The notes under the pieces were generated by a model that saw only the letters and a list, made by a program, of their open reading frames with translations, did no database searches and was not told the origin of the DNA. Positions 16,995 to 62,626 of a stretch of DNA of 64,000 nt are shown here, piece after piece. The DNA is from Amoebophrya sp. A120 (Eukaryota; Protista; Dinoflagellata), in contig CAJINV010000014.1 in the NCBI GenBank assembly GCA_905178155.1, forward strand, positions 902,116 to 966,115, written 5' to 3'. Both the position numbers and the translations under genes were made by a program. Numbering within the stretch: the stretch's first letter is position 1; each line of letters begins with the position of its first letter.

Positions 16995-17299
16995 AGGTGG
17001 ATCGCGGGAAACGGTGGTCCGTCATGTGTTGATATTGCAATTGCTTACGCCGTGGCTGTATAGTACGACGGAATGTACCCGGCGAAGGCTTCAACGTCAT
17101 CATACTTACTTCTACTTATTGATTCCACTAGTTTTATTTGCACCAACTCGTACTTACACACGTGCATCGACTCCACAACGTTCCATTTTTAAGAATGGGG
17201 GAGCTCCAGTACTAGTGCGCAATAGCAATTTGTAACTCTCCTGATGTAACGCAGTTCCTTGTGGTCTTTGCTGTGGTTACACATCATACGGCTCGGATA

Positions 17300-30124: not shown

Positions 30125-33100
30125 CTATTTCGCTGGCCCTTGTTTGTGCGCCAAAGACAAATACTCGCTCTTCATTACGTAATATATTACAGTGAAAAGT
30201 GCCCCCCACCCCCAAAGTTGCAAAATTTTGTGATGCGAAGTTTCCAAATAAAACCTTTTTGTCATGCATGAAAGGAATATGAATCTTTCTGATGCAGATT
30301 CTAGTGTTGTTTCGCATCGCTTGTATGACAAGCACCGCTCTTACTGGGATCTTTTGCAATACAAATTTTTGCTATTCACGATCGGAAATCTGTGATGCTG
30401 GTACATGCAAGAGGGCGAATGTTTCATTTGGAAAGGATTGCAATACAAATGCTTTCAAGTTCGGGGGTGGGGGCATTTTTCATTGTAATATAATAGCTGT
30501 GCTGTTCTCGCCATATCGGGTACACCTCCTCATTGTCCTTCCACCGCAGATATCAAATGTAAAAATGTCTGGGTCTGGAAGAATGCAACTTGTGATGCTG
30601 AATTTGGATTCCAAAAAAATCTGTATTGCATGAGCAGCAAAGGGAGTGTAATTTTTGCTACGCGGGGGGCATTTGTCATGCGGAATAGGCATCGCGAGGC
30701 CCTCAAAAAATCTGTGATGCTAGGGCATGCATCACAGACATCATGGCCCAGGCAAAACATGCATGACAAGTCTCAGAATCTTCCAGACCCAGACATTTTT
30801 ACAGTTGATAGCAAAAAAAGTGGCAGCGAGAAGTCGTCACTCCGCAGCGGTTCCTCGATCTTCTTGTCTCCCAACACCACGTGCCACATAAACTCTGTTC
30901 TGTGAAAAAACGTCCCCACGACCCCAGAGCAGGCAAGATGGGGTTGATGTGGCTACACCAATCAACAAGCTTAGCTTTGTCTTCTGTGTCGCGCATGACA
31001 AGTTTGTGTTGTAATCCTGCGTAGCTAGCGCAGCCGCATCAGAAATCGTCCTCCATCCACTTAAATATCCAGACTTTAGCATGACAGCCTCCCAAGCAGC
31101 ATTGGACATACTCTACTCGTCATGTGACTGCGCATGCAAAAGCGAAACATTTCGGCATGCGAATTTGCATGACAGCCCTGGGATGAGGACGACATTTTTC
31201 CACCGGATAAACTCCAACGAGTAGCAGTAGCTCAGCCTCTGCCCCTTGTACTTCTCGTAGGTGGGACCAATCCGCTGGCAGAGGTCTGGGATCGAACCGT
31301 CAACGATCTGCTGCAGCCGCTCCATCCGAGCTTGCGGAATGTTGTGAATCAGTTTCCTTATGCATTGCAAATGTGTTTGGGTCTGAAAAGGTTCCGCCTG
31401 TATAATTCCGCGTCTCGCATTTCTGACAAATCTGTATTGCATAAGAAACAAATAAAGCGCCACCCCTTCGCCATGCAAAGTCGCACTTTCTTTGTAGTGA
31501 CGCACACTACGCATGCGAAAGCGTTTGAAAAGAAATTTGCCATGCGTCCCTAGACAACTTGAAGGCGCACTCAATCGTTTTGACAACTGAACAGTACTAC
31601 GACAGGTTTCCCGACCCCGACATGTTTGCAGTTGCACTCCATATGCTTCTTACTGATCATAAACTGCGCACAGCAGTAGGTCTCGAGCAGTTGCCGTCTC
31701 GTTTTCTCGACGGTAAGAGACTCGCCCATGATATAGTTGAAAACCTGGTCCTGGCATGGTGTGGACACCTATCCCAGAAAAAAACGCAGGCAGGGCAGAT
31801 TTGTAATGCATGTAATGCAAAAATAAGTTTACGGAGAAAAATCTGCCATGGGCGAGCTCATATAGCATGCTCTTTGGGATATTCTTTTTTTGCGTTTGCG
31901 TACTCATTTTTGCATAACAAATTGCCCCGCCTGCTTTTTCCCGGGTGATAACACCGCGACCAGACGGGGGGTGGAGAGATGCAGGAAGTTGACTTATGCT
32001 GAGTAAAAACGTCCCCACCTCAGACTTCTTATGCAGGTTTCGCTGTCTACCGGCACATGTGTAATGCGCATGCCCATGAAAGTCGTTTCTCATCGTGTTT
32101 TGGCATTTGTATCGATAATGCGGTAAACAGGATAAGCAGATGGATTTGTGCTGTGGCTGCCCTAGCTAATTACCTGCACCACTTACACTACGCACTGCAA
32201 CTTGTCACGCGCGGCGACTCCCAAAACTAGGTTCTTTGTGTTGCCAGGTGCCCGACTTAGCTCTGGACAGGGAACGTTTTTTCCCCAGGATATGACTTCC
32301 TCGTTGTTTATGTTTTCCCCCAGCCGCCCGGACTCCATGCTGGCCAGGATTAAGTTTAAGTAATGGTACTGGAACTGCCCCCAGTGGGAGATCGGGTCGG
32401 CGTGCAAAAAAAACGTGAAGTCACCGATGGGTCCTGTAGTTGCAGCATCCGGTGCTCCTGCTGGCGCTTCAGTAGCAGAAGAAGCACCGCCGCTATTGCT
32501 TCCGCCAGAACCACGTCGGTCAGACCCGGTATAATTCGCGACTCCTTCCAAGGAGGTGGGAGTTCCATCACTCGCGCTCCTGGCGGCTGCTGCAGCGACG
32601 GCGTTCGCAACGTCCGGCCCAGCCGATTGTCCGTTCGTTTCGATAAACCGATCGATCGACTGTTTATCTGTGATGCCCAGTTCCTCCAAATTTTGTTGCT
32701 GTGCGAACCGGAGAGTCTTATGCAGTGCAAAAGTAGTGTCGTAGCTGCATAGCAGTTGCAGTAACATTGAAAATTGCAATTCATCTGTCTCCGCAGTACG
32801 ACAAAACATCTCTAGCGCTCGTGGTTACGGTATGGAGACGGGTAGTGATCTACAAAGATGCCTATACTCATTTTTATGCTGCAACTAGAGCGAGTATAGC
32901 AGTCCGACATTATTTGCACTTTGCGTAAATGTCCTCGTGGAGCAGGTGCTTATTCTCCCAGAGGTATTTCTGCCGTTCGTAGGCACTGGTTTTCTCGGTT
33001 GTTTTATCAAATGCAAAAATGTCTGGGTCTGGAAGATTTCTAGATTTGTCATGCATATTTTCCATGACCCGTGATGTCTGTGATGCATGCCGTAGCATAA

Positions 33101-36072
33101 CAGATTCTTAGAGCGCTTCCTCATGCCTATTCCGCATGACAAATGCCATCTCCGCGGAACACAAAATCTACTCCTCTTACTGGTCACGCAATACAAATAT
33201 TTCTGGAATCCAGAGACAGCATCACTAGTTTAGAATCTTCCAGACCCAGACATTTTTGCATTTGATATGTTTTCACCCCGGACAGCCTCCGCACGCCCAG
33301 CACATGTGCCGTGTACGCCGAACATTCGTCTCTCCGGGTCTGCTTTTGGATCACTTGGTCGGCTTATGGGAGTGCCCACCTCCCACCTCCCGCTCCATTA
33401 CCATTTCATATCATGGAAAAAAGCATAATCCGCTCCTTGCCTTCTCCTACCACATCTTCACATTGCGTGTCACACTCTTTTTGAAAATCACGACCTAAGC
33501 GGTACTGCGTACATTCCAGGAAGAGATGTATTTGCAAAACCTGCATTGTAGTGGCTGGCGCGGCTCAAGGTGCTGCTGTTGCAGAGCTGCTAGAGAGAAC
33601 GTCGCTACAAATACATTCATTATGCGGGGAATGGCGACGGGTCGTGCACTTTCATAAGTCTTCGTCTGCGATGTTGATCACGTGCAGTTCTTGCAGGTTC
33701 TCCGTAAAGAAGTTCACCATGGCGGCTTCCGCGTTTAGCTCCTGTTGTTCCCCCGTCGCTTTATCTTCCTCCTGCGGCACACCCTGCACTGTCGTTTCTC
33801 CCTGCACGACATGCCCTTCCACCGTCGTTGCAGCCGTTGTCGCAACTCCTTGCAGATGAGATGTTGACAAAGGAACAGCACGACCTATTGCCGTGTCTGT
33901 GATGTTGTAGTGCTTGGCGAGGATTTGTTTTATGTCTAATCTCGTGCCAGAAGTTCCGGTCTTCGTGAACATGTGCGTCCTTATTTCTCCTTCGACCACT
34001 GCAGCTTCTCCCGCCTCCCCTTTAACACCTCCACTCACATCCCGTCTTTCGCCACTAGGGCCGGGACCTGATGATCCGGCCAACGGTGTTTCATCATGAG
34101 GTAGTTGAAGTTCATCACCGTTGAGTTCTTGCAACAGCTTCTTATTTCCGTTGTAAAAACTCCCCACCGCATCCGCGTTGGCGCCGCACTTTTCGTAGAT
34201 GAACAGGCGCGTTTTCCGCAGTACGTTCAGTGGCCAGGAAACCTTCTTTGGCAGCCACGAAAGATCGAACTCGCGGCAGTGCACGATAACAAAATCAGCG
34301 GATTGGGCGATGGTGGAAGAAGGAGGACGAGACGTGTGCTCGTCTAAGACATTTTCTTCCACTGCCGGTTTCCTTGTGACCGCGTCAAATTGGTCCCGAA
34401 CGCTGATGAAGTAATCGTGCGCCTCGTGAACGGGCCAGCTGTCCAGGGCGACCTGCTGGTGGACGTCGGTCAGTTTGTTGGACAGCATGTCCAGAGCCAC
34501 CGTGAAGTACATGCTTGCCCGGTCGGGGTTGGTGTACAGGCTCGTGGTCGCGATCAGAAACGCCGCGACCACCATCCCCCCCGGGCAGCTGAAAATCAGC
34601 TCGTCCCGGTACTCCGCGGGGAGACCGAGCAAAAACCAGGCCTGCTTCAAGGGCGGCCGCGCGGTCTTCTGGCGGTAGAAGCTCCAGGCGCGCAGCTGGA
34701 AATGCGGGCAGGAAAAGAGGTTGGTATGGAAGCGTCAGGTTTGAAATCGACAAAGTTGAAATGAATTGTCATGCAGAAAATGGATGAAAGTTGCAACCCA
34801 GTTGCCAAGTGGCGCATCACAAATTCGGGTAGAGCCGAAATCCAGTGTGTCATGCTGTTTGGGTAAGGAAGACGCCTTTTGTCATGCTACTCTAGCAGCT
34901 CTATTTCTACCCCGAAACAGGCTTACAATCTGCCCCTTTTGCCTACTCTGCAAGACAGACACTTTCTGCGTTGCATTTTATGCATGACAAACTATCTCAA
35001 CTTTGACGATTTCAAACCTGACAGTTCCATAGTTGGTGTGGCAAACGTTGTCCGGTGTGCAGTACTATCAAGTGTAAAAATGTCTGGGTATGGAAGAATC
35101 CAAATTGTGATGCTGCATTTGGATTCCAAAAAAATCTGTATTGCATGAGTACCAAAGGGAATAGAATTCTTGCTACGCGGAGAGGGCATTTGTCACGCAG
35201 AACAGGCATCAAGAAGCTCTCAAAAAATCTGTGCTGCTCGGGCATGCATCACAGACATCAGGGCTCATCCAAAACGTGCATGACAAGTGTCAGAATCTTC
35301 CAGACCCAGACATTTTTACATTTGATAAGTACTCCAGTTTGAATTCCGAGGGGTACGTCGCCTGCGCGGACGCAAACAGGAGGTTCCTCTTTCTGGTGCG
35401 CGGCTTTGCTGTAGTAGTTCTACTACTTGGAGGTTTTGGCACGACCACGCTCTGTAATTGTTCCCCTTCTTTCGGAAGTTCGTGTCGCGTCGTGCAGGTA
35501 GTTTGCGTCTGCTCCCTCTTCGCGAGTGCTGGTGGCGGAGCAGCTTGGCCATCATCTGGTAGTTCCACCACCATCTCGCGACGTAGTTCATCAACATGTG
35601 CTCGCGGCGCAGCAGTGGTAGTACAGGAACTCTCTGGCAGTGGTGTAGCGCCAGTAGCCGCGGAAGTTGCAAAAACACGTCGATCTCTGGTGTTATACTT
35701 CGTCCAACCCCACGGCAAGACCTGTTGGCGCACGGCAGGTCGTCTTGTGTTGCTGCACACGGTGGCTCGAGTAACCCCTCCAGAGTGTCGACCATCGGAG
35801 GTCGGGTAGAAATTGATGTCCAGGTTAGGAACATTCGGTTTCCGCTCCACGAGCAGCTCCTGGGTCTTCAAGAGCAGGGAAGAATGCCAAAAAACCGTGG
35901 CTGCTGTTCTCTTACGGCATCCTAATCCAAATGCTGTTTCTGTGGTTTCTGAAACACACAAAGAAGAAGAAAAGAAATTCGTGTCAGACAAAAAAACGCT
36001 GGAAAAATCATAAAAAAGTAATTCCGCTATTGCGAATAGCAACAGTGAGTAGCGAGGAGGTTGCGCGAACAT
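30125..36072 (-). CDS. DUF3431-like protein with an N-terminal signal/anchor; at least 11 introns (9 introners)
   Basis: Spliced motifs VIVHCREFDLSWL, LFIYEKCG, RRDECSAY, FTFFLHADP, YCCAQFMISK and SLEF|MWHVVLG follow the DUF3431 pattern. ATG at 36072, stop at 30125. Confidence 0.75.
30185..30490. mobile_element. Introner, family C
   Basis: Perfect TAATA DR; removal gives HSYY|VMKSEY. Confidence 0.95.
30551..30810. mobile_element. Introner, family A
   Basis: DR GCAGA/GCAAA; removal gives PLFL|RWKDNEE. Confidence 0.95.
30896..31209. mobile_element. Introner, family B-like
   Basis: Perfect AACTC DR; removal gives SLEF|MWHV. Confidence 0.85.
31359..31643. mobile_element. Introner, family A (degenerate)
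   Basis: DR TTCCT/TGCTT; frame restored. Confidence 0.8.
31770..31950. mobile_element. Introner, family E-like
   Basis: TATCCCAGAAAAAAACGCAGGC...GCCTGCTTTTTCCCGGGTGATA; perfect ACACC DR. Confidence 0.85.
31995..32292. mobile_element. Introner, family B
   Basis: Perfect TGACT DR; removal gives EEV|NFLHLS. Confidence 0.9.
33005..33267. mobile_element. Introner, family A (inverted relative to 30551 and 35066)
   Basis: Perfect TIRs of about 30 bp; perfect TGTTT DR. Confidence 0.95.
34725..35031. mobile_element. Introner, family G (TIR TATGGAA..GTCAGGTTTGAAATCG.CAAAGTTGA)
   Basis: About 35-bp TIR; perfect GTTGG DR; removal gives CHTN|LFSCP. Confidence 0.9.
35066..35327. mobile_element. Introner, family A
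   Basis: Perfect AGTAC DR; removal gives LEY|CTPDN. Confidence 0.95.
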
Positions 36073-44637: not shown

Positions 44638-47411
44638 TCACGAGAAGAACAGATCTGCCATGGTTGCGTCCACTCCCGCTGACTTCGCCAAGGCTAGCGC
44701 GGTCGTGTCCTTCTGCGCTGTTGCCACTGTAGTTCTACTGCTGCTCTCTTCTACTGCGACCATGGCGGAACTTCTACATGGCTTCTGCTCCTCTCTCGCT
44801 GCCAGTTCGGCGCCGGAAGATGGTCGTGGTTGGCCTGAGAATTCCATCTTCGGCGAACGACCTACACGGGCGGAAACATCTTCAGTACTGCGCAAGTTGT
44901 TACCGTCAGTATGAAGATTATCTGCCCCACCACCAACCGCCGCTCCGCCGCTGCGACAGAGGGAAACGAGAGAGCGCAGCCGTTGGGAAGACGATTGCTT
45001 GTTCTCTCGAAACACGGGCTTTTCCAACTTTCCGAGCCGCACCGCTTCGGTAAGGGAGAGGGAAAATTCCTGATATTTATGTTGTAGTATTTTAAGAAAT
45101 GGTTTTTGTAAATAAAACAGAAAGCACATGCCTTCAAAATGCATCCATATCGCACCAAGTAAGTAGAACAAGACCAACGCATTCCGTAGTACCTGCAACC
45201 GTTGCGAGCTGACCAGCGTGACGCTGTCGTGTGCACGGAGACGTTTAACCGTGTCATTATCAAATGCAAAAATGTCTGGGTCTGGAATGTTGCAGGGTTT
45301 GTCATGCATATTTTGCACGACCCAGGATTGTGTGTGATGCACGACCTAGTAACATCACAGATTTTTAGAGGGCTTCCTGATGCCTACTCCGTATCACAAA
45401 TGCCCTCCCCGCGTAGCACAAACTAGATTCCTCTTGCTGGTCATGCAATACAGATGTTTTTAGAGTACAAAGTTAGCATCACAAGTTCCAACCTTCCAGA
45501 GGACCCAGACATTTTTACATTTGATAGTCATCCCGATACAGCAACTCATCGTCCAAGTCGGCTTGCGTGCGCTCAATCGCCTTCATCAAGTGCTTGTACT
45601 CTTCCGTCAGTGCCTCTTTCACACTCGTGGCCAGCTGCAAAAGCTGCTTTTTGTTGAACTTCTGAGCCTGGGCGGGTTGTTCCTGCTCAGAAGTTTTTGT
45701 GTTGCTGGAGGACTCTACTGCTGTGGGTGTAGTTGTTCCGCCATCGACATGATCCTCGGTTTGCATTTTATTCCCCCCTTGTGTAGTCGCCGTGGTCCCC
45801 GCTGGTGTTCTGGAAGCAGTAGATTTATCTTCGTCCTTGTGAGAAATTTCTCTCGCAGGAGACGCGGAACTACTATCGGCAAGGTTCAACATCTCCGCTT
45901 CCGTCGTTGGGGAACTGGAGGAGGACGAGGTCGCTGAATTCGCGTTGCTCTCCGTGCCGGAACTCTGCCCCCCTTCGGCCGTACTGCAAGACGCTCCTGA
46001 CGTGGAACTGCAACTAGCGCTAGATGATGCTGAACTGCCACCGCCTGTTCTTGTCTGGAATGTCGATTTATTCTCCGCGACTCCGGCTGGAGGACGAAGA
46101 TTTTTGTGCACAACAGTACTACACGACGAGCCAGTTGTGTGATGATGTTGCATCATCTCGATCGGGTTTTTTCCCGTACTCGGTCGGGTCGACCCGGCAG
46201 ACCGGGCTGTGGACAGTGGCGTTCCGACGTTCAATAACCTGCCAGAAGTTTCTCCGTCGTCGGCCCCCGCAGGTTGCACTTCCACACCCTCCTCGTCAAC
46301 ATTCCCGCCGAATAAACTGGTACTCCCCGCAAGCCGGCTGCTGGGTCGCGCGGAGCAGCTACTGCTCGCGCGGGCCGTGGACGGCCGGGAGCTGGTCTTG
46401 TCGAAGTCCGAATAGTTGAGCAAAAAAGTCAGCACCGCGGAATCCGTTTGCGGTAACACCGTTTGCAGGGGAACGCTGTGTTTCCGGGAAATCTCGCGCA
46501 GGGACTCGATCAGCGAGAGACACCTTAAAACATTTTGGAAATTGTAAAAGCGCCGTTGTCTACTTCACGAGGGCTGCACTGCCAGAAGATGCTCTTTTTG
46601 ATGTTGCAATCGCGAGGATGCGACATATTTTTACACTGCACAACACGTCGAAGTTAGTATGGAACATCAGCAACGAAGACTCCTGCAGAGAAACTTCAAA
46701 AACAAAAAGAAACCCAATTCCGTAGCATCAATACTTCTGAATCAGTAGGTCCCGTTGCGGCGTCTGCAGCAGTGTCTCTCTCTCCCGCGCTTCGTTTTCC
46801 CTTTTCTCCAGCAGATCGTCGTTCTGCGCCCGGAAATCGTGCAGGATTTCCCGTAAGCAGTGGAGCTCGCGTAGCAATTGCTTGTTCCGCCAGGAAATTT
46901 TCTCCCCGAACCCGTACAAGTGATTCAGCTTCACCTTCAACTCAAACAGCTCCACGGGCAGAAGCGACTGCGCCACGGTGCTCCACACCAGCTGGGATTC
47001 GGCGAAGTAAAAACCCGGGTGGTTGTCGGAGAAGGGGTTCTTATGGTCCTTTTCCACGGCTACTACCGGAGGTTCTGACGTTTCATCCAGGTAATCCTGG
47101 TCGTGGTGGTCGACTTTCATAACAGATGATGTTGAAAAGGAAGATACAGCTGTGGATGAACTAGAAGGTGCTTGAGCTTGTCCTCCTCCTGCTCCTGAAT
47201 TTGTACTTGCATCACTCGGGGGAGGAACAAATTTGCTAGAGGAGGAGCTGGAACTCGGGGTGCGCGGCGTCGTCCTCTTCGCTACAGACATCGCCGTTGC
47301 CCTGTAGCTCGCTGGTGTTCCTGTAGTGACTGGCCCCGTCGTGCTGGTCGCCGCCGCTTCCTTCAGGTTCAGGGCCGGAACGACCGGCATTGATGCTGGG
47401 GACTTCTGCAT
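44638..47411 (-). CDS. CCDC24-like coiled-coil protein
   Basis: LVWSTVAQSLLPVELFELK...LLRELHCLREIL, DLLIQK|CLSLIESLRE and VKEALTEEYKHLMKAIERTQADLDDE resemble CCDC24 blocks. GT-AG intron 46524-46734, introner 45258 and a further GT-AG intron near 45070-45192. Confidence 0.6.
45258..45526. mobile_element. Introner, family A (inverted orientation)
   Basis: Perfect GTCAT DR; removal gives YRDD|TVKRL. Confidence 0.95.
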
Positions 47412-48240: not shown

Positions 48241-51200
48241 CTACAGAAACTCATCCGGGTCCTGTTCGTCATCGTCGCTCGAAATAGCCAAGTTCGAGCC
48301 CACCTTCCCTCCGCCACCCCTTCCCATTCTCCCCCTGCTTCCGCGGTCATGGAAATCGCGATTTCGCAGTATCCGCGCATTCCCCGGCGTGCGGCCCGCA
48401 ATCACACCCCCAGATGTTGATGTTGAAGATGATCCGTTATAATTTGCCGTCCCCGTGGTCGTACCAACCCGCGTCGGCAACTGCAAAGGTCGGATCGGCG
48501 GAGAAGTTGGATTGTTCACCGCTGCCTCCACCTTCTTATTCTTGCTACTGTTCACCTGCAACGGTCCTCGGGAGTTCGCTTGTGGGCTGGTGTGCTCGAA
48601 TGATCTCCGGGAGGTGGAACTTTGTTTGTTTGTTCCGCGCGGCTGTTGTTCCTGGGTACAACTAGTAGTGCCAGATGCTCCTGGACTTGTTGTTCTTACA
48701 CCGTCGCCAGCTGCACCTCCTGCGGTCGGGGACTTTTGCAGCTGCGTCAAGTTGTACAGACCTTGAAAGGGCAACGCGGTAAAGTCCTCCTCGTTTATTT
48801 GCTCGGTGTCGGTGTGTTGCGTCGCGGTCGAGGAGGAATCGGAGCGGGCGGGGAGATCGTGGTGATGTCCACCGGACGACGAGACCGGATTTGATATTCT
48901 TGGAAATGATGTTGCATAATTGCCGGCTGTACTAGAATTGTTCTCAGTTCTTGCGCTTGGTCTTCTACTTCCTGCCACGACCCCTCCTCGCCCTCGCCTC
49001 GTGGCAGTTTCTCGATGTACCTGCTCCGGACAGTCTTCGGAAGAGGGGTCGATGTTCGTCCTCGGACTGTCCATGGTGTTGAGGCCCTGAAGATCTTGGT
49101 CCAGAACCAGCACATTGACGTCGCCGTTCGGACCCCTAGTTCCATTTGCCAGCAGCACTTCTGCGCTTGCATTCCCCGCTGGAGAAGAAGAAGTGGCAAG
49201 AATTCTCCTGCCACTGTTCCTCCTTCGCTCACCAGGACTCTCGTCAAGAACATCGGTGGCGGTGTAATTCTGCAGCGCTTTCGTCCTTTCTATGACCGCC
49301 ACGATGTCGTGTCGCATGTCGTTGTTCACCACGCCCGCAAACCAACTGCTCATCAACAAATCTCCGACTTCCGCCCGGTGTTTGGGGTTCAACTTTATGC
49401 AGGCCGCGACCAGAGAGTCGTCGTCGAAGGGCTTCTTTTCCAGGTACTGGTTCGGCGGCGCGGGGATATCTATCGTAAGGAAAAATCCCCCCTCCCCATA
49501 TTGAAAAGGTATGTTTCCGAAGATTTGCGTTGCTGATTTGAGGCCACGGATCGCATTTGTCTTGCAAGAAGACAAGGGCAGAAGCTTCCGCCCCATTATG
49601 GAAGCGGCTTGCCATGCTGTTGGGCCTAAAGAGGAGCCGTTTGCCATGCTGAACAACTAGACCCATACGCCCCTACCTTGCCTGGGGATCTGGCCGCAGT
49701 GCCTCTCTGCAATACAAAGCTGCTTTGTGTATACAAATCCAGCATCAGAAATTCCGTTTTGATATGGGGAGGGGGGATTTTTCCTTTCGATAATATCGAT
49801 AAACTGGATTTTCCCGTAGTCCGGAAGCGCTCTCACCTCAGGCCAGTCGGCGTGCTTCACCGTGCCCAGGCAGTGGAAGATTTTCCCGAGCTGCTGAATA
49901 TCGCAGTCGCCGTCGAATAGGACCTTATTCGTTTGTACAGCTTCTCGGGCCGATGCAATAAAGTCTTCTCGTTCATCGCCGTCGAAATCGAACATCAAAG
50001 CCGTCGTTGCGGGATTGGAAATCGTGGGCGCAAGTAGAACCGGCTTCATCTCGTCGGTCGGTGGTTGTGGTCCGCTGCTTGGCTGTTGCGGTGGTGCGTT
50101 CTGTTCGCCGTGGGAGGTAGTTGTTCCTGCTCCCGGTGCTTGGCTTGGACTTCGGGCAGTGGGAGTAGGAACGGCATGATCTTCGCTCGTCGAGTGAGGA
50201 GAACTATTGGTCTTCAAATGTTGCATCAGTTCGTAGATGATGCACCCCACCGCCCAAATGTCGATTTTCTCGTCGTAGGTGTAGGACCCGTAGAGCAGCT
50301 CTGGCGACTTGTACCACCGCGTGCAGATCTCCCGCGTCAAAGCGTTGGCTGCTTATGCAAGGAAAAAAGTGTTTATTCACAGTAACACATTTGTTGGCGG
50401 CTAATCAGCAACACAAACTGGATGTGGTCCTGCATGATGACAGAGGAAGCTTAGCTTCAAACTTTTATGCAGAGATCTACTTCACAAGGGAACATTAAAA
50501 CACGTATGATACTAACCTCCTCCTGAGTACTAAATTTATCCGGCATGACAGACCTTCTCTGTCTTGCTTGCTCTACTGTGCCATAATGTATCACTGCAAC
50601 AGCACTTTTTTCTTTGCATACCGCTGCGCCAGTAGACACTATCGAGGACTTGTGGTTTTGGTTTTGCTTCATTCCTGGTCGATTCACCATTTTCGAGGAA
50701 TCCGGAGCGGCAGTAGCTGCGACGACATGTCCTTCCTTGTTGGTACTAGCTGCAGATGCTGCACCTGCTGCAGCTCCCAGCAGGTTCTCGAGCGCATCCG
50801 GTGCGGTTCCCAGTAATGGGTGCGGGCGCTTGGTGGCTCTCGTCGGCGAGGAACTGCTATTATTTTCCGAGCGGTTCTCTACGCCAGGAGAACGAGGGTC
50901 GGGGAGATCTGATGTAGAGCTCGCAATTGTGGAGGTTCTTTTTGCTCCATCTTTATTGATTTTCGAATTTATAGCACCAGCAACATCAGCAGTGTTTGGG
51001 AGAAGGTTCCGGTCCTGGTCGCTGGGGACATTGGCTTCTTCAGTCGGATTTCCTTGTTCACTCGTCGCCTGAGTACTTCTAGAGTTGACCGTCGCGCCGC
51101 AACTAGCAGCAGTCGTGGTACTTCTCGCCCCTGCACTGGAGGAACTGGCTCTCGCTCCACACGTGGCAGCAAGTGGCTTGGTATCGACTGCAGCTGGTTC

Positions 51201-53719
51201 CTTTTTCGACACCGCGCGAATTGGTTTCTCCGGAATCAGGCACGCGGACCCGAAATCCGCGATTTTTAGCAGGCCGTCCTTGTGTAGCAGTAAATTTGAG
51301 GGCTTCAAATCCCTGTGCATCACCTTCCGATTCACGTGCAGCTCTTGCAGTCCATTCAACAGTTGGAACGTCAAGCGTTTCACTTGGGATTCGGACAGTT
51401 TGACACCTTCCGGGGTCCTTGTCGGGTGCATTGGTGGTGATGTACAAGTTATGCATTGCAAAAGTATCGCAGTAGTAGTATCAATCGCATCACAAAAGAA
51501 GCTCATCTCAGAAGAAACAATAGAATTTGCAAAAATGCTGACTTACGACCTAAGGCTAAGATCACAATTTTGCCATGCATAACTGCAAGATGAATTCAAG
51601 TACTCAGTAGGGGTAGTACAACGACACTTTATTTGCACAGGATACTACAACTCCCCAAGTTGCTGAAGATTTCCCCCGGCGCGTTCAGGACCTGGTAGAG
51701 ATCCATTTCGCAGAATTCGTACACGAGGTAGTAGCACGGCTGCTGCGGACTGCGGAAATGCGACAACATTTTCACGATATTGGGGTGCTGATTCATCTCT
51801 CCTTCCACGTGTTTCAGCATGGGATTCAAGTTGCTGCCGAAGATTATGGATTGTAAAAATGTCTGGGTCTGGAAGATTGCAACTTGTCATGCTAAATCCG
51901 AATCATGCGGAAATCTGTGTTGCATGAGTGCCAAAAGCTGTACCCTTTTGACCAAGTTGAGAGGGAGTTTCTCACGCAGGAAAGGCATGATAGAGACCTC
52001 AAAGAATCTGTCATGCTGGGTCTCGTATTCCAGACCTCATGGGTCATGGAAAAGCTGCATGACAAATCGCGCATTCTTCCAGACCCAGACATTTTTACAC
52101 TTGATAAAGATCTGGCTCGTGCAATCCAACACGTTGTGGATGAACATATCCTCCTCGTTATCATTTGCAAAAACGTCCCCACCCCGTAGTTGTAATGCAA
52201 TTCTGCATGCTGAAGATGTTTCTCATGCGGAGTTCCATGCGAAGCATTTTCTAGCTGTGTTTCGGAATTTGTCATGCTCCAATCAGCATGATGTGCTGGA
52301 TCTGTGATGCTCGTAAAGTAGCTAAATACGATTACACTACGAGACCAAATCTCTCATGCGCAACAGCCAAGCCCTGTGGATTTGTCTAGCAGATTGCCCA
52401 TCTTGACTATGGGGTGGGGACGTTTTTTTACACAGGATACTCATTGTTCCCACGACCAGTTGCACCACCCCCACCCAAGGGGCTGCACTGCGGTACCATG
52501 ATAGCGCCGGCGCCCAGGTACTCTTCCAGTGTCAGATTCAGATTTTCCAACTCCATCCGTGCGCCTTCATACACGACCTGCTGCGTTCTGGCGTTGAAGA
52601 AACTCGCGTCGGCGCTGGCGCCGCAGAAAAACTGCCGCTGCTCGTTGTCCGCGACGGCGAGCTGGCTTCTTCTGGATGAAGATGACGACAACTCCGGGTT
52701 GTAGTTCTTGGCACCAGAAGTACTATTTCTGTAAGACCCGCTGCCATTGTTTCGCGAGGAAGATGGGCTGCTGTTTTTTTCGCCCGACGGATTTTTATGC
52801 TGATCTCTGTGGTCACCAGAATGAAGACTCTCAGTTGTACTACTGGAGGAGCTCGAGTTCCGCTGGCTACCGCTTGTGCAATACAAATTTGCCGTACACA
52901 AAATAGACAAGCCTCCAACGCGTTTACAAGTAACAAACTCCGTCAACCTAAATAATTCGATATGGCTGCGAGAAGTTTCTTTTTGTCGTGCAGCGATTGC
53001 ATATGCATTTGTAGTTGTGCATGGTCGTGTACGGCAACAGATTTGCAGTGGATACCGTTTGCGGTGGTGCTCGAAGCTGTCGAACTGTCACCCGTCACGC
53101 CCGAAGATGATCCCACGACCCCGAATAGCAACTCGTCCGCGTTTGTTTGCGATTTCACCGCTGCGGGGTCGTAGAACTCTAGCTCACGGAGAATCGATTT
53201 CGTCCAGGCGTCCGTGGCTTCCAGCACAATTCGACCCGTCACTGGGCAGAGTATGAATGGCAAAAAATGATCTCGGTCTCGTCTCGTTCATGCGAAACTT
53301 GTAGTAGGTGTAGAGCCAGATCTACTGTGAAGATGCATTTTTGCCACCAGCTTTTTTGTCGTGCTCAAGTCAAAAAATGCGACCTTTTCATCAATCAGTA
53401 CGAATGGAGATGAACCTGCAACTGCACACAAATAAGCCCTCCCATGCTGCTACTTAGTTCTAGGCCGTACAATAAATAACGCTCTACTACTAGCATTGTG
53501 CAACAATCAGACCAGCAAGTCTTGCTGGTCTGATTGTTGCAATCGACCTTTCATCCAGACTGAGATCATTTTTTTGCATTTGATACACACGCGCCGCGCG
53601 CAATCCCGGTAGTACACTTCCTTGATGGCCACGTAATCCTGCGTGTCCTTCGTAACCGCCTTCGACACCGAGCCGAACCGGCCCTCGCTGATGTGACCGA
53701 CGTGCTCGTAACGATGCAT
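48241..53719 (-). CDS. CDK-family Ser/Thr kinase, CDK20/CCRK-like, with large insertions; 7 introner introns
   Basis: [65 protein letters not shown] and [15 protein letters not shown]. All 7 junctions are in frame. Confidence 0.88.
49471..49792. mobile_element. Introner, family D (TIR TATCGWAAGGAAAAATCCCCCCTCCCCATAT)
   Basis: Perfect ATATC DR; removal gives QFIDI|PAPP. Confidence 0.95.
50354..50620. mobile_element. Introner, family E-like
   Basis: TATGCAAGGAAAAAAGTG...CACTTTTTTCTTTGCATA; DR CTGCT/CCGCT. Confidence 0.88.
51450..51647. mobile_element. Introner, family F (degenerate)
   Basis: Left TIR TATGCATTGCAAAAGTATCG; DR CAAGT/CAACT; removal gives LGSC|TSPP. Confidence 0.7.
51845..52106. 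mobile_element. Introner, family A
   Basis: Perfect AAGAT DR. Confidence 0.95.
52159..52439. mobile_element. Introner, family B
   Basis: AAAAACGTCCCCACCCC...GGGGTGGGGACGTTTTT; DR CTCGT/CTCAT. Confidence 0.88.
52875..53054. mobile_element. Introner, family H-like
   Basis: TTGCCGTACAC/GTGTACGGCAA inverted pair; DR CCGCT/CCGTT. Confidence 0.8.
53252..53585. mobile_element. Introner, family A (degenerate)
   Basis: DR CAGAG/CACAC; removal gives RRVC|PVTG. Confidence 0.75.
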
Positions 53720-54611
53720 CTTGTTCACCAGGATATCGATTTCATTTCTAAGGAAAAAAAGTACAACATGTTCGTGCTTTAGAGTAGAGTTTTTCGCTTT
53801 TGGCACAAATTATACCCTGAAGCAAAAGTTGAGGGCGTGCTGCGACTATGGTTTTTAGTACACACAAGTTTCATAATCGCGAAAGCATCGCAACCATGAC
53901 GAACAGGACGCGCGCAACTACTTGCGTTCTTGTTTCTAATTCATATTCACCAGTAAAATTTATGCGTCGAGGACCACTATTTATCTACTCAGTATAACAA
54001 AACCAGTTAGCGAAACTCTGCACTAATGAGCCACTGCGTGGTCGAAGTCGTGTGAATACAAACTTCTTGCGAAGTATAGTTGTACTAATTTTCACTCAAG
54101 TTTCATATTGCCACTCAATTCCTGTCTGCAGGTTTTCGAGTTCCTTCCTTTGACATCAACACACACAACTTCCTTTGATATCAACTGTCTCCACGTCATC
54201 TTCGAGCAGCTGCGTCGCTCTATAATCTCGCTCACACTGTTGTTGAATCGGAACAACTTTTTCGCAACACAGGAGAATAGCATTGTGCAATCGATCTCTA
54301 GGCCTGGTTCGGACCTAGGAGATGAGCAGGAACGACGACGGGTGGAACGTGTAAATCTTTCGTACATTCTGATTTTCATCCTCGGAAAAGAAAACTTACT
54401 GTCTTGTAGCGTAGTTACTGTACTAGTGCTCTCATTATATGAACATGTCCGGAGATGTTGACAGTGGCAACAAATTGGCGCGGGAAAAAAGTCAAAGTCA
54501 CATGGTTTTTTCCTAGTTCCGCTGTTACAGTCCTTCTCCCGTGGACGCCCTTCAAACGACCGAGAGGTCGTGGTGGAACAAGCATATTTATTATACCAAA
54601 ATTAGTACAAT

Positions 54612-57600
54612 TCAGCTGCCCTGGCCCTGCAGCGAGTGTTTCACCTGAAACAAGAAGTCAATCTCGTGCTGTTTCAGCACTTGGTTCTGGTCAAACGCGG
54701 CCACCAGTGGCGCACATCGCTCGTTCGTGGATTTTTTGTACTGGAGCGCCGTTTCCTCGGCAGTCATGGCCTCGTCTCGCGTGTTTGTCAACTCCAACAC
54801 CGTCGCGTTGATTGCGTTGGACTCGGTCACGAGCGATACTTTCTGCTTCTCGATCGCAAATTTCTGGTTCGACAGTTGCTCCTTCTCCTTCCGGTAGTTC
54901 GTTTTCACGTCGTTCAGCCTGTCTAATCCGTCCGACACGCTCGCTTCCACTTCGGACAGCATGGTCTGCAGCAAGACCACAATGCTGCCCCCGGACTCGT
55001 GCTTCTCGTACGGATTTGCCTTCTCGGGTCGCTCCACCTTCGGCAACCCACTAGGGTACGTTTCGTTCCTCGCCGACAAGGAGGAAAGGGATTTTTGTAA
55101 GAACAGCACCGGAACGCTCATCCCGTAGAACCGCTGCAGTTGGTCGATGGCGGACTGAATCACCTGTAAATGCAGTTGTTTCCGTCTGGAAACCTGCAAA
55201 AATTGAAATGCACGCTTCCCCATGAGATACTACGCACTTCAATTTCAATTTCAATACCCCTCCAGGCATGACAAATCTTAATCTTTTGTGAAGGGTGCAC
55301 TTTCGCTTTTCGAAGTCCGCAATACAAGCTTGCATTATTCCAGAAGACCGAGACAAATTTGCAGGTGATAGATTGGATAAACTTGCTCGACTCTTGGTCG
55401 TCTTTGATTTTCGCCTTCACCGTTTCGATCTCCTCGACCTTCGCCTGCTCCAAGTTCGCAAATTCAAATATATCAATGCCAAACATGTAGTAGTCTGCGC
55501 ATCATGGAGGTGTAATGTTCGTCTCTTGAAACGAACTTCAGTAGCACAACTTAATACCCAAGCACGACAATGTTTTTGAAGGCGGGTACTGCATCATGCG
55601 TAAACAGTTTTGAGAAGTAGGAATCGCCCCCCTTGTCTTGCATGACACTACTAAGCCAACATACGGCACTCCTGACGCACTTCATGCATCACAGATTTTG
55701 GCTCGTCCATGCGAAATATTCATCTTCCACACGACCCAGACTGAAAAATATGTTTGCAGTTGATAGACCTCCAGCTCGTGCAACTCGACGTCTGCGTTCA
55801 GGATTTTCTCGGGGAAGGTGATCGCGACACCGGATTGCAAGTCCAATTCGCCCTGGACGGTGTCGTACTCATGACTCTTCTCGGTCAGTTGCAAACTGGC
55901 CTCCTGCTGCTCCTTCAGGCACTCGTCTTTCTGTTCCACTTCCTCCTGTTTTTCCTTTTTCATCTCCGCGATCCTTCCGTCGATTTTGTCCAAAATGAGA
56001 CTGGTTGCGGCGGCAAGCTCCGGCGACTGTTTTGACGTGATCAGTTGCTTCAATTGGACCATTGCCTTCATTATCAAATGTGAAAGTGTCTGGGTCTGGA
56101 AGATTGGAACTTGTCATGCTAAATCTGAATCATGTAAAAATCTGTGTTGCGTCATTACCAAAAGCTGTCCACTAATCGAGAGGCAGTGTCTCATGCAGAA
56201 TAGGCATGATAGAACTCTCACAGCATCTGTCATGCTATGTCCTACATGGCAGACCTCATGGGTCATGGAAAACCTGCATGACAAGGACAACGCTTGCATT
56301 CATCCAGACCCAGACATTTTTGCATTTGATATTCATCGTGTTGACTTTTCGCCGGATCACTTTGTTCAGGACGGATTTCGGGGACGTGAGCAGCTCCAGT
56401 TTAAAATTGTTGTTCTCTCGGCGGTTATGCTGAGGAACCGTCGGGCGAAAACTCCTTCCAGCGTTCTTCTCCTTCTGCTTCCTGTTTTTCATCTTCTCTT
56501 GCTCCATCATGGCGTCTATGTATTGCAAAAGTGTCTGGGTCTGGAAAGTTGGAACTTGTTATTGCAAGGAAAAATCCCCCCTCCGCATATCAAAACGGAA
56601 ATCTGTGATGCAGATTTGTTGTCACAAATCAGCTTTGTCATGCTACACGGGAAAAGATGCGGACTGTAGTGCTGGGTGGCGTGGGGGAGCCTTGCATCTT
56701 CAGCATGATAGGAGGCAGCTGAGAGTGGGAAACAGCATGACAAATTGCCTGCAAACGAGACCACGACTGCGGCTCTTGGCCTTCTAGTATGGCAAGTCGA
56801 TTTGGTGCCTCAAATTCTGCATCACAGATTTCCATTTCGATATGGGGAGGGGGGATTTTTCCGTTTGATACTTGTGATGCTACCTTTGGAACCCGGAACC
56901 TTTGGACTCTACATAAAATCTGTATTGCATGAAAAGCATAAGAGAGGCAATTTGTGCTACGCGGAGAGGGCTTTTCTCATGCGGTATGAGCATCGTGAAG
57001 CCCTCGCAGAGTCTCTGATGCTAGGGCATGCATCACAGACCTCATGGGTCATGGAAAATCTGCATGACAAACTTCTGCACTCTTCCAGACCCAGACATAT
57101 TTGCATTTGATAGCGTCCAACGAATTCGCGTCTTCGTCGTCCGAAAATTTCAAACTTTTCAACTTCAAAATCGGAGAAGCTAGGGACGACTTCTTGGCGG
57201 ATGCTTCTGTTCTTGAAGTACTAGTAGATCCACTAATAGGAGACGCCGCTCGCCCGCCTTTCGTTGTCGCTAAACCAGCCGCGCCCGCTTCCTCTACTGT
57301 TCCACTACCCGCCTTCGCCGCAGCCCGTGCTCGTCCACGACCAGCTGCATCCTCTTCAACCGGAACGGGAACGGAAGTACTAGCACCGGTTGTTCTTTGA
57401 AAAATTTTCCGCTTTTTATCCACAAGCTGGCTTGATGTTTTTCGCCGTTTGAACAACGATTCTCCAGCACGACGAGCTGCAGAAGCTTTGGTCATCTGCG
57501 ACGCTCTTGTCGAGGTCGCGGACCCGTCGTGCTTCGACGCAAACAGCGTGAACGCGCTGCTACTTCCTGTTGGTACAACGGTTGTAGTGTTGGTCCCGCT

Positions 57601-60600
57601 GCTCCCGCCCATTAACCGTTCCAAAGTGGCGTCCAACGCCGCAACTTCCTGCTCCCGTGCCGTGACCCGCGTGTCGTACTCTTCGCTCTGGAGTTGACAG
57701 GTCACCTCTAGCTCGTGCAACGTCTTCTTCGCCTCTTCCAACACATCGCCGGACTTTCCCAGCTGATTTTCCACCTGCAACAGCTGCAAACTGTTGGTCG
57801 ACAGTTCCTGCTTCTTCTGGGAAATAGAGTCGTCGGTGGCGGAGATTTCTTCCGTTTTCTTCTCCTTCAACGACGAAAATTCCGTTTTCTTGTGCGTCAA
57901 ATCGGCCCTGGTTTTTTCCAAGTCTTTGGTAAAAGTCTCCTGCATGGAGGACAGGATCCCGAACACCTTCTGGGTTCCGGCAGATTGGAATTCCGTGCGG
58001 GATGTCGGCGGCGCGGGGATCTGGTGGTCCTTCAAAATCTGCAGCAGTTGCGGCTTCATTGATAACGATGTTGGAGGACCGGCTTGATTTTGCATGATCT
58101 GCTCTTTGTCTTTACCTTGTGGAACAAGCGTGTTTGTAATTTTCGTGTCGGAAATAACGCCTGCTGGAATCGTTCTTACAGATGAAGTCGGAGAAGTTCC
58201 AAACAGAAACTGCTGCAGAACGTCGAACACCCTCGACAAGGTCAGACTGCGCACGTCACTCGCCGGTAAAACCACCCCCTCGTCGATGAAAGAAGAAGTT
58301 GTTGCACTCCCACTGTTATCAAATGTAAAACTGTCTGGGTCTGGAAACTTGTAATGCTGAGATGTGAGTAGTAAGTGCTCTGTAGTGCACAACCAAGCAT
58401 GAGAAATATTTGCGGGGCTACAGTGTTGCGCTTTTCGCATAACAAACTGCGTTTTTGCATGACAAGCAAAGGGGTCTCTTCTTGGACACGCATTACAGAC
58501 TTTTCAGTCATGCTAGACAAGCATGACAAACCTTGCATCCTTCCAGACCCAGACATTTTTGCAATCCATAACTGTGCTTTCCCAGAATCACCAAAGCGCC
58601 ATTTAGCGCGCCGATCGACTCGACGAGGTCCTTATCGAATGCAAATATGTCTGGGTCTGCGAGGTTGCATCAACTTGCGATGCTGTCTTTGGAAGGTAAA
58701 AAAAATCTGTATTGCATGACCAACAAGAGGAGTTCAGTTTGTGCTACGCGGAGTGTGCATAATTTCTCATGCGGAATACGCATCAGAAGGACCTTCAAAA
58801 ATCTGTGATGCTAGGACATGCATTTCAGGCATCATGGGTTATGCAAAATGTGCATGAAAAACCTGGCAATCTTCCAGATCCGGACATGTTTGCAATGCAT
58901 AGTCCTGCTCCAGCTCCTGCTTTTCCGCCAGTTCCTTCTCGCATCCTGTGCAAAAGTATCGCACTCGTACAAATGCAAGTCTTGCATTACAAATCTTGTT
59001 TCCAAGGCAAACCTGCGTTACAAATTCGATTTCTCATGCTGGGGAAATTTATAATGCATTTATACGAGTACGATACTTTTGCAATGCATATCTCGAAAAC
59101 CTCCACCAATTGCTTCAAGGAGGCTTGCATCTCCGCCGAATCCGCGGTCAAATTTTCGATGTCCATTTCCAAAGCCGCGATGGTCCCGGTGAGCCCAGCT
59201 TTTTCCTCTAACAATTTCTCCTTGTCGGAATTCTCGATCTGAAACTTGGCTTCGTTCTTCTCCGTTTCGCAGTAGTTCTGGAATTTCGCGAACCAGTCAG
59301 CGTCGTTATCCACGTCTTGCTCCACCTCCTGCCTGACTTTCTCCAGTAACGTGATGACCTTCGCGATCGGCTCGGCCGGCGGGTCTTGGACTGCGACTTG
59401 ACTCGCGGTTCCTTCCGTTTTCTTCTGGTAAACGAAAAATTGGTTCCTCTTTTGCAGCTGCCGCAAGAAGACTTCCTGTTCCGCAAGGGACGTAGTACCT
59501 TGTTGGAACAGAGATTTTTTTACCTTCCTTTTCATCTTCGGAGCGAGTCCCCGAGCACGGCTGGTAGAGGATGAAGTAGAAATGAATTCCTTGCCACTTT
59601 TGACCTTCTCCGTCACGACTTGAATTTGCCGTTTCCGCTCCCGTTCAAACTCGTCCGCGAGGTCGTCGTCGTGGAAATCGCTAGAAGTTGTAATAGCTCT
59701 CTGGTCTTTGCTTGTTTCGCTGGTTTGTTCCTTTATTTCCGCATGTTGCAACCTGTTCGACAAGCGGCCGTTCTTCGAATTACTATTTCCCGTCTGCACC
59801 AACGTCGCTGCTGTAGCACTATTGCTGCCCATCGTCGCCGCCTGGGAGCTGGCCAGTTGCAACGCGCTCTTCAAGGATTCCAGCAACTGATCCCGCTTCA
59901 ACTTCCGTGCCTCGTAGGACTCCGCCACGTTGCACATACGCGTGCTGTTGGTCAACTTGTTTTCCGCGGCCGTGACCTTCTGCGCCGCCCACGGCTCGTG
60001 GTGGTCTTCGTTGATCTTCAGCAAAGTTCCGCTCGCCCACATGGTTTCGTTCTTCAAAATAATCTCCTGCTGCATCGCCGTCTTGGTCGCCAGCTCGTTC
60101 GCGTGCAGTTCCCCGTAGTTTTTCAAGTCCAGTTGCAGCTGGTTTTCCGTGTTGGTCACCGTGTTGCTCATGTCGGTTTCCACCACTTCCAGCATGGCGA
60201 TCGCGTTCTGGATGGCGGAATTTTGCGCCAGTTCCGGGCGGTCCAGTTCCAAAAGCGCGGACTCCAGAATCGGGATCGCCTCCTGCGCCTCCGCCAACTG
60301 CTTCTCGTTCAAAATGTTGGACTCTACGAAAGTTTGGTTGTGCTTGTCCATGCTGGCCTGGACCTTCGCCAAATCCACTTTCTCGTCCTCGATGTCCTGC
60401 CACATCTCCGCCACCTCTCCGTGCAACTTCTGGTTCGTGGTCTGGTACCACTTCAGAATGCCCGCGGCGGAGTGCAGCGTTTGCGCGTCGGATTTCAGCA
60501 TCTGGTCGCACATCTGCTGTGCCTTCATGTCCTCGATGTTCTCCTGTTTCAGTTTCAAGATGAGGTTTTTCACCAAGTTCACGACTTTCAGCATGGAAGT

Positions 60601-62626
60601 GGAAACGTAGGAGCTCGTGCTGTCCTGATCAGGATTCTGCTTCAATTGTTCTGTCGAAGCCGTAGAAGATGATCTGCTGCTTCTAAACAGCTGCTTCCTC
60701 GCTTCCCGTAGTTGCTCAGAAATCATAAACGTAGTCGACTTGATGTTCATCCTCTGGGTCGTGGAAGCGGCTGCGCTAGAACTACTTTGCGCATCGGTGG
60801 TCATTTGATGTTCCCCAGATATCGACGCCGTCGCCAACCGCATCGCCTGCGTTTGCGCGTGCTCCAAAACCCGTTTCAAGGAATCGCCGTGTTCTGCTCC
60901 TTCTTGCAAACTATGCATTGCAAAAGCATCGACGCACTTGGACCACGTACAAATCTAAATCATTTGTTGTGAAAAAGATAAAAATTCTGAAGCAATCTGC
61001 ACCGCTGATTCAGATACTTAATCACAACGAGTTCTACACGATAGACCTCAAGATGAGCTTTTGCCGTTGATACAAGAACATCATCGCAGCTGTTGCCATC
61101 GCACTGCTTTTCAGCACGTTCACCGCGGACGCACAGGCGGAAATCTGCATTTTCAAGTCCTTTTCCAGCTCCAGGAATTCCTTCTTCTTCGCGTCAATCT
61201 CATTCCCCAGAGAAACGATAAGCGACCCGGACGAGTCGGAGTACTCTTGTGCCGTCTTGATCGCGTCCGTTTTCTCGGTGACAATCGCCGCCTTTTCCGA
61301 TTTCTCCTCGTCTATCTTCGTCAGCCGCGTGTATCAACTGCAAAAATGTCTGGGTCTGGAAACTTGTGATGCAAGTCAGGGAAAAATGCGCATACTGTAA
61401 TGCACTGCCAAGCATGACAAGTTTTTCCGTGGTTCAGAGTTGAATACTCTGCATGAGAAACTGCGTTTTCGCATGACAGGCAAGAGAAGCCCTTTGCGGC
61501 CATGCAATTCAGAGCTCAAAGTCATGCCGGACTAGCATGACAAATCCCGGAATCTTCCAGACCCAGACATTTTTGCATTTGATAGCGTGTCACACCGGTC
61601 AATCTCGGACTGGAGCAGTGATTGTTTCTCGTCGTAGGTCGTAACCGCGGTCTTCTCCTCGGTATTGAGCTCCTCGAGTTCCTGCATGGCCTGCGTTTCC
61701 AGCTCCTCGATCATTTGCTTCAAATCCTCGACACTGCTGGCTTTCGTTAGCGATTTTTTGGAGGATTTCTTCTCGGATAGACCTCCGCGAGTTGATGTTG
61801 TTGTTTCCAAAATCATCTCCACCGCTGCGCTGTGCTGCTTGGCTTCTTCTGTGCTGGAAGTATAAGTCCTCGTGTCTGTCTGCAAAAAGGACACCGCATT
61901 GCTGCTCATCGCCGTCCCGCTTTCCTGCAATTTCATCGCTAACACGTCAAATTGGTCCAACGCGGTCCTCACCGCCTTCGAAAACTCCTCGTTTTTTGTG
62001 AGCACCTCGCGGTATTCACCGTGCTCCTTCTTCCGCTCCGCTTCGTTCTCCGCGTGGATCTTCTTGCTCTCCCGCAGCTCCGTTTGCAGCAGGCTGTCCT
62101 CTTCCGCCAACTTCTCCAGATCGTTCTCCGCGGTCGCCTTCTCTGCCGAGGCAGTCACCAAAGTGGTTTCCGCGTCCGTGTAAATCTGGTTCTGTTCCGA
62201 CAACGACGTCCCCAGGGTCTGCTGCTCCTGCCGGTGAAATGTGGTCCGTTCGGTGAGGTCCGCGGCGGCTTTTTTCCCGATGCCGTCCAGAATCTCGATC
62301 ACCTTCTGGACCATGGCGTTCTTCTGGAGCACAACAAGACCACCTCCGTGCTGCTGCTGCTGCTGCTGCTGCCGCTGCCGAACAGCGGTCGTCGAACTGC
62401 TGCTGCGGGAAGATTCGTCTGCATTTAGAAGTTGATGCAGTTGCAGTTTATGTTCCGCAGCTTCCATGCGCCCTTGCCTTTTCTCCACTACCAGGACAGC
62501 GGTTGCCGGCACTATTACAGCATTGAAGTCCAGCAGTATAGTAGCCGTCGAAAAGATCGCTGCAAGAACTACCCTTGCTGCCAATGGGCAGCGAAGGGAG
62601 GAGAATCGTAAAACGGAAAGCCACAT
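54612..62626 (-). CDS. Large repetitive coiled-coil protein with a putative signal peptide; 9 introner introns
   Basis: Hydrophobic N-terminus, then repeated units beginning MVQKVIEIL / MLKVVNLV / PIAKVITLL with FLQ-like motifs. All introner junctions are in frame. ATG at 62626, stop at 54612. Confidence 0.8.
55158..55370. mobile_element. Introner, H/A-like (degenerate)
   Basis: ATCACCTGTAAAT...ATTTGCAGGTGATA; DR GACTG/GATTG; removal gives KFIQS|AIDQ. Confidence 0.75.
55471..55765. mobile_element. Introner, family A (degenerate; DR lost)
   Basis: Removing the element plus 5 bp gives HELEV|EFANLEQ. Confidence 0.65.
56072..56331. mobile_element. Introner, family A
   Basis: Perfect TTCAT DR. 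Confidence 0.95.
56517..57112. mobile_element. Introner, family A, hosting a nested family D element
   Basis: Perfect GCGTC DR; removal gives SLDA|MMEQ. Confidence 0.93.
56560..56870. mobile_element. Nested introner, family D
   Basis: D-type TIRs; perfect CTTGT DR inside the family A sequence. Confidence 0.93.
58317..58570. mobile_element. Introner, family A
   Basis: Perfect ACTGT DR. Confidence 0.95.
58633..58901. mobile_element. Introner, family A
   Basis: Perfect GTCCT DR. Confidence 0.93.
58942..59090. mobile_element. Introner, family F (TIR ..TGCAAAAGTATCGYACTCGTA)
   Basis: Perfect TCTCG DR; 149 bp. Confidence 0.9.
60912..61072. mobile_element. Introner, family F (degenerate)
   Basis: DR CAAAC/CAAGA; removal gives MMFL|QEGA. 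Confidence 0.72.
61332..61584. mobile_element. Introner, family A
   Basis: Perfect GCGTG DR; removal gives CDT|RLTKI. Confidence 0.95.
62349..62371 (-). repeat. (CAG)7 coding microsatellite (polyQ)
   Basis: Tandem CTG on the + strand. Confidence 0.9.

Follow-up and report, generated by a model that had tools for sequence, protein, structure and literature searches.

An intron-like element that lies inside another of its kind raises two questions, namely how it came to lie there and how the pair is removed from RNA. We addressed both for a protein-coding gene of Amoebophrya sp. A120, in which one introner element (here D) interrupts a second (here A), within a window of 64,000 nucleotides of genomic sequence. 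Introners that are DNA transposons were reportedly first described in an earlier study. Those of A120 number 29,850 copies, or 17% of the assembly, and are characterized by inverted repeats composed of TAT, seven variable bases and a run of A, by direct repeats of 3-5 nt and by hairpins (PMC7789003); some have been attributed to TIR DNA transposons (PMC12130899). According to the text of the genome report, neither a U1 snRNA nor a transposase was found in A120, and how tens of thousands of non-GT-AG introns are removed with no detected U1 snRNA is an open question (PMC7789003).

On balance, we consider it reasonably probable that D, acting as a small DNA transposon of the non-autonomous kind, inserted into A and that the pair is removed in one step from the intact ends of A, with removal of D beforehand being possible and probably not required.

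The nested elements

Element A occupies positions 56517..57112 and measures 596 nt with D and 280 nt without it (no strand is assigned to the elements or to their target copies). It has TAT..ATA ends in which 25 of the 30 terminal bases are complementary, and it is flanked by copies of GCGTC at 56512..56516 and 57113..57117. The left terminal inverted repeat, which supplies the 3′ end of the transcribed intron, lies at 56517..56546 (+), and D does not reach into it. The right one, corresponding to the 5′ end of the intron, lies at 57083..57112 (-) and is evident from sequence, from folding and from DNA contig X1 record 5, which starts at 57088, covers 25 bases of A and then runs on into the exon. 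Element D (56560..56870, 311 nt) likewise has TAT..ATA ends and equals A in its terminal complementarity (25 of 30 bases); its inverted repeat extends over ~86 nt, with complementarity at 67 of 76 aligned positions. Copies of CTTGT flank it at 56555..56559 (positions 39-43 of A) and 56871..56875, and D together with one of these copies amounts to 316 nt. The element is located 43 nt from the left end of A, target copy included, and 242 nt from the other end. The initial annotation had described a 311-bp D with a perfect CTTGT repeat sitting 43 bp inside an A with a perfect GCGTC repeat, and all of these features are present in the sequence.

Both elements have the hallmarks of the A120 introner class. 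All four of their ends consist of TAT, ~7 variable bases and a run of A, and both GCGTC and CTTGT correspond to border direct repeats of 3-5 nt. Each belongs to a repeated family, with 11 other copies of A aligned and two other copies of D in the window that are homologous to it along its length, at 49471-49792 (73% identity) and 13112-13437 (72%), whose interiors give alignment scores far above those of shuffles. Being short and non-coding, with terminal inverted repeats and with perfect 5-bp repeats at most TAT..ATA elements, they also conform to MITEs, or non-autonomous TIR elements. A perfect 5-mer at exactly the ends of D would be expected by chance in about 1 of 1000 cases. With a permissive score threshold of 15, 26 TAT..ATA pairs bordered by perfect 5-bp repeats were detected in the real window versus 2, 3 and 9 in three shuffled windows, with A and D scoring 45 each.

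When D is taken out, the remaining 280-nt A can be aligned with 11 other A copies (58-79% identity), none of the 11 requiring a gap at the junction, and the bases flanking the junction are those of uninterrupted copies, which bears out the earlier proposal that removal of D regenerates a family A sequence. Judged by these sequence features, the nest is a genuine pair of known A120 introner elements.

Two further observations concern family A. The host copy carries a small duplication at 56882..56906 (+), a 9-nt repeat of period 16, that appears as an insertion of ~17 columns absent from the other A copies aligned, and is thus private to this A. It begins at a distance of 6 nt from the right-hand CTTGT and could be either a scar of repair or the product of slippage that has nothing to do with D. 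In addition, A copies are found in both orientations (33005-33267 and 45258-45526 versus 56072-56331 and 56517-57112) in genes that are apparently on the (-) strand, the gene strand for the first two having been read from reading frames only; this arrangement suggests that splicing is independent of element orientation.

Splicing of the host gene

The nest resides in a gene at 54612..62626 (-) that we modeled with nine introner-type introns on the basis of spliced contigs and a public protein. An 1839-aa protein of Amoebophrya sp. A120 (NCBI, P0001) matches the exon at 57115-58311 with 100% identity and was the sole hit among 7997 candidates, and this identity assigns the nest to the A120 genome. 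A Pfam scan of four exons of the host gene gave no family over the cut-off; from its composition, we take the protein to be probably a coiled-coil protein.

In the gene model, each of the nine elements is taken out together with one target copy. The result agrees with spliced contig X4 record 13 at nine of the nine positions checked, and its translation equals the public protein at 1839 of 1839 residues for cut registers 3-5 (see below). The exon upstream of the nest in transcript sense, 57113..58311 (-), comes from the spliced contig table (X3 record 10, X4 record 13). The 180-nt exon downstream of it, 56332..56511 (-), is not listed as a piece of its own and was deduced from positions 1223-1402 of X4 record 13; it is reproduced by the gene model, and X3 record 10 has the same total of 576 nt between the flanking pieces. 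The 601-nt joint that removes the nest was also read from the coordinates of contig records and not from the joint list, in which cross-matches between repeats predominate. Contig sets X3 and X4 were assumed to be RNA and behave as spliced RNA. Both derive from one sample, and the public gene model may share related data, so the spliced contigs and the public protein are not independent of each other.

According to the contig coordinates, A is absent from the mRNA of this one sample. Translation of the model is broken if the nest is kept or if D alone is removed. Removal of 601 nt in one cut restores NSLDA|MMEQ and the 1839-aa frame, which is a test of sequence and not of kinetics; the junction SLDA|MMEQ that had been anticipated for removal of both elements is the one found in the public protein. 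The corresponding predicted intron spans 56513..57113 (-), with CT...CG ends; its length is observed, and the exact cut within the perfect repeat is the one expected from the register proposed below.

Spliced mRNA says nothing about the presence of D, because the same mRNA would result if the DNA had no D. More can be learned from the exonic D copy at 49471-49792, which splicing removes, along with one target copy, in both X3 and X4; the D family is therefore splice-competent. By analogy with this copy, the nested D can probably leave alone, although the two are in opposite orientation, each relative to its own transcript. The predicted inner intron would span 56556..56871 (-), 316 nt in length, with GT...AA ends under the same register.

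A raw RNA run that carries the same species label was uninformative with regard to the nest, since its 193 matching reads are partial and none is at least 99% alike. About 190 reads match 80 nt of the A copy at 56072-56152 with ~93% identity and then continue into other sequence; this A-like piece seems to have been kept in a transcript of what seems another strain.

A proposed fixed cut register

Where the two target copies of an element differ, the ends of the spliced-contig pieces restrict where the cuts can fall. We define the register as the number of bases of the transcript-upstream target copy that are retained in the mRNA. Registers of 3-5 are allowed for the element at 55158-55370, 3-4 for 55471-55765, 2-5 for 60912-61072, 4-5 for 50354-50620 and 2-5 for 52159-52439, and register 4 is the sole value compatible with all five. 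This comparison suggests a fixed register, with a single nucleotide between the 5′ cut and the TAT that follows and four nucleotides between ATA and the 3′ cut, a choice that hangs on two elements, on single contigs and on the placement of joints by software; a sixth element (~51450) gave no resolution.

With cuts at these positions, introns should start with NT and have free bases at their 3′ ends. Under register 4, A would be a CT..CG intron and D a GT..AA intron. The nine predominant non-canonical pairs of intron ends in Table S4 of the A120 genome report all begin with GT, CT, AT or TT (PMC7789003), as the register predicts. That report leaves the cut position open (PMC7789003), whereas a fixed register is put forward here, and such a register is possibly absent from print. 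It is arguably more useful than the nest itself, given that it would explain the NT-xx ends of the published table.

Some elements depart from the standard form. At 55471-55765, the target copies agree at one of five bases, yet exactly the element plus 5 nt is removed, and the precision of removal thus appears independent of the repeat. The elements at 55158-55370 and 58942-59090 lack ATA at the transcript 3′ end (their left ends are AAT and CAT) and have an intact 5′ TAT; they are still removed at the same length.

One step or two

We propose the following course of events. A would have inserted into coding sequence and duplicated GCGTC, the repeat that is now seen at its borders. D would have arrived later, at a distance of 43 nt from one end of A and with duplication of CTTGT, an order that is suggested by the nesting. 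This second insertion was likely near-neutral, because it is located in RNA that gets discarded. In the transcript, the terminal stem of A is predicted to form as before, with the long hairpin of D stacked on top, and the splicing machinery would cut 1 nt before the TAT of A and 4 nt after its ATA. Because D carries ends like those of A and its transcription is completed 43 nt sooner, some molecules would lose D first. Both the one-step and the D-first routes would lead to the same mRNA.

Folding predictions are consistent with this course. The expected number of pairs in the terminal 30x30 stem of A is 23.4 both with and without D, and all 15 shuffled inserts gave values of 23.4-23.8; the stem of D itself has ~46 expected pairs. 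Since the predicted terminal stem of A is unchanged by D, the outer end should look alike to any machinery that reads hairpins. On the strength of this modeling, we favor one-step removal as sufficient and D-first removal as optional. The initial annotation had envisaged either sequential excision or a single 601-nt step, which is correct and yet spans both options; it is the folding that leans toward a single step being enough.

The most serious alternative, which we nonetheless regard as unlikely, is an obligatory two-step twintron, wherein D must leave first because it displaces a needed signal of A by 316 nt or makes A too long. The signal in this case would be GCAT[CG]ACA, located ~45 nt from the 3′ end and a possible branch site. 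The motif TGT[GC]ATGC is present in 81 copies inside elements (6.4 per kb) versus 16 outside (0.31 per kb), is common to different element families with several internal copies each, and is a candidate transposase-binding or splicing signal. In both A and D, one copy lies 41-45 nt from each end, and D splits the copy closest to the 3′ end of A, at A position 41, as obligatory removal in two steps would have it. The same reading gains from the GT with which D begins under the proposed register, GT-AA being one of the most frequent end pairs of A120 introns (Table S4, PMC7789003), and from the precedent of fungal stwintrons, which are removed in two steps despite their terminal symmetry (PMC9024468). 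Moreover, the 596 nt of A with D far exceed the lengths of all other catalogued elements (149-334 nt, median 268), and a limit on intron length could therefore make two steps necessary.

Against these points, the motif is an internal repeat of many copies, and a role in transposase binding would fit it equally well. Furthermore, the end of D and the target copy together provide a near-copy at an equal distance from the end of A, and this look-alike is predicted to pair in place of the motif: with D present, the inner-helix segment of A has 11.9 expected pairs with the left target copy and the D end versus 1.1 with the recreated motif. The terminal stem of A is unaffected in the folding predictions, and A120 introns of up to 1000 bp have been analyzed with RNA support (Farhat 2021, PMC7789003).

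The recreated motif had itself drawn attention in the initial annotation, in which D was noted to interrupt a TGTGATG that the duplicated target then restores. This is true (the right CTTGT copy recreates TGTGATG at 56873-56879) but trivial. Because the motif is cut after its third nucleotide, the 5-bp duplication must restore it, which happens on one side of D only, the inner one; we rejected a special meaning for the restored copy because the motif is common inside elements.

If two steps were obligatory, Amoebophrya would possess obligatory twintrons made from transposons, which would combine a hairpin-end ruler (an N|TAT donor and a cut 4 nt past ATA, irrespective of the bases there) with the GCAT[CG]ACA signal and from which D must leave first, a scenario to which we likewise assign a low probability. 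Nests throughout the genome would then chart which signals this splicing reaction uses, and they would be tolerated only in places that leave A removable.

Origin of the nest

We return to the reading in which D transposed as DNA into a resident A. The nesting and the intact duplicated target indicate that D is younger than the lineage of its host. The initial annotation had taken D to be younger than the host copy, and this holds with respect to the host lineage only, in view of a decidedly doubtful alternative in which D entered an earlier copy of A and the 596-nt unit subsequently transposed by means of the ends of A, which would make D older than the present insertion site. Joint movement of this kind would be compatible with the equal perfection of the GCGTC and CTTGT duplications, with the intact ends of A, which could render the unit mobile, and with the private duplication beside D, which fits a distinct sub-lineage. 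However, no second A|D junction is present within the 64-kb window, and none is among the contig joints listed, a small part of the total. Identity to the other copies in the window (72-73% for D, 58-79% for A) was uninformative as to the relative ages of D and A.

A route through RNA, in which D reverse-spliced into unspliced RNA containing A and the product was reverse transcribed, seems very improbable to us. Such an event was inferred once from nested introners of Micromonas (PMC3879977), and it would accord with the failure to find a transposase in A120 as stated in the genome report (PMC7789003). Nevertheless, the constant 5-bp duplication, the TAT..ATA ends and the occurrence in both transcript orientations fit staggered cutting of DNA, and the introners of Micromonas have since come to be classed as MITE-like DNA transposons (review PMC11282704).

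Finally, it is hardly credible that the nest is an assembly artefact in which one repeat was pasted into another, for although the published assembly retains Illumina scaffolds with closed gaps (PMC7789003) and short-read DNA contigs end at every element with no read bridging the nest, those scaffolds were checked with Nanopore reads for chimeric junctions (PMC7789003), and a mis-join would be unlikely to set a complete TAT..ATA element between an exact 5-base duplicate of the host (~1 in 1000) and to leave the host gap-free.

At positions 56788 and 56807, inside D, all of the DNA-contig depth counted in X1 carries another letter, and the same applies to 58756, 61503 and 61509 in other elements, these counts being incomplete. 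DNA depth reaches ~11,000 at 56788 versus ~50 in unique sequence; as a summed depth and not a copy number, this suggests that the nested D has many close relatives.

Comparison with known nested elements

Nested MITEs, in which one short element with inverted repeats and a target duplication of its own lies inside another, resemble the arrangement of A and D. The difference is that A and D both belong, in addition, to a class of element that splicing takes out of the RNA. Relative to the A120 introners described by Farhat 2021 (PMC7789003), the two elements share the organism, the hairpin, the non-GT-AG ends and lengths near the reported mean of 240 nt. An introner within an introner has also been described for Micromonas, where nested or merged examples are known (Verhelst 2013, PMC3879977), but Micromonas introners have 3-bp targets and GT/GC..AG splice sites (PMC11282704), whereas A and D have 5-bp targets and no fixed acceptor. 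Nesting of introners is already published for Micromonas (PMC3879977), as is the A120 element class (PMC7789003).

The nest was originally called twintron-like, and as far as tested this name applies only in a loose sense, because D lies outside the donor, the acceptor and the terminal repeat of A. An intron within an intron and terminal symmetry are features that it has in common with fungal stwintrons and the twintrons of Euglena plastids (PMC9024468), and a 'sensu lato' class of twintrons requires no disrupted signal (PMC9024468). In strict twintrons, by contrast, the outer intron has its donor, branch point or acceptor interrupted by the inner one, and removal in one step fails (PMC9024468); in the A/D nest, the terminal repeat is not hit, and one-step removal gives the correct mRNA frame. 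Similarly, one-step removal shifts the frame in fungal stwintrons (PMC9024468) and causes no shift here.

In the nonconventional introns of Euglena, too, the ends pair and lie at a set distance from the cuts, with variable bases at the borders (PMC12501133), and a MITE origin is suspected for them as it is here (review PMC11282704). Their signature, N3CDG..CHG N5-6|R (PMC12501133), differs from the N|TAT..ATA N4 proposed for A120, and the two lineages are unrelated.

Frequency and use of nests

Introners account for ~20-21% of the window, in which we catalogued 50 host elements, four of them with approximate ends. At this density, a crude uniform-insertion model predicts 2.5-5.4 nests, and the one found is thus unsurprising and likely an ordinary by-product of an element-crowded genome. 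The probability of at most one nest under this crude model is 0.28 to 0.03, which hints that nests are slightly scarce, whether through mild selection against nesting, avoidance of element DNA as a target, or nests that were missed.

Other candidates in the window were set aside. A second one was rejected: located at 32719-33656, it has a perfect AGTCT repeat, but its removal as a single unit breaks the frame, which can be kept by three separate elements with coding sequence between them; those at 16949-17751 and 50970-51522 score at chance level. A full-text literature search, together with the text of PMC7789003 and its supplement, PMC12130899 and PMC11282704, gave no report of nested introners in Amoebophrya; the word 'nested' is not used in the text or text supplement of PMC7789003, and 'twintron' is not used in its main text.

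Nests can be regarded as natural insertion mutants, in that the sites at which insertions survive within their hosts show which parts of the host are needed for splicing, and which family lies inside which gives the order of family activity. The present nest indicates that A can accommodate an additional 316 bases at a distance of 43 nt from its 3′ end. A single case changes little, but it would be a handy natural probe for the splicing of introns that lack normal splice signals.

Two other regions of the window deserve mention. The spliced D copy at 49471 is one of several introners in a (-) strand protein kinase gene at 48500-53800 (Pkinase, E 2.8e-16 in one exon), whose product is presumably CDK-like judging by its motifs. 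At 25627-25742 there is a 12-bp tandem repeat that is probably coding.
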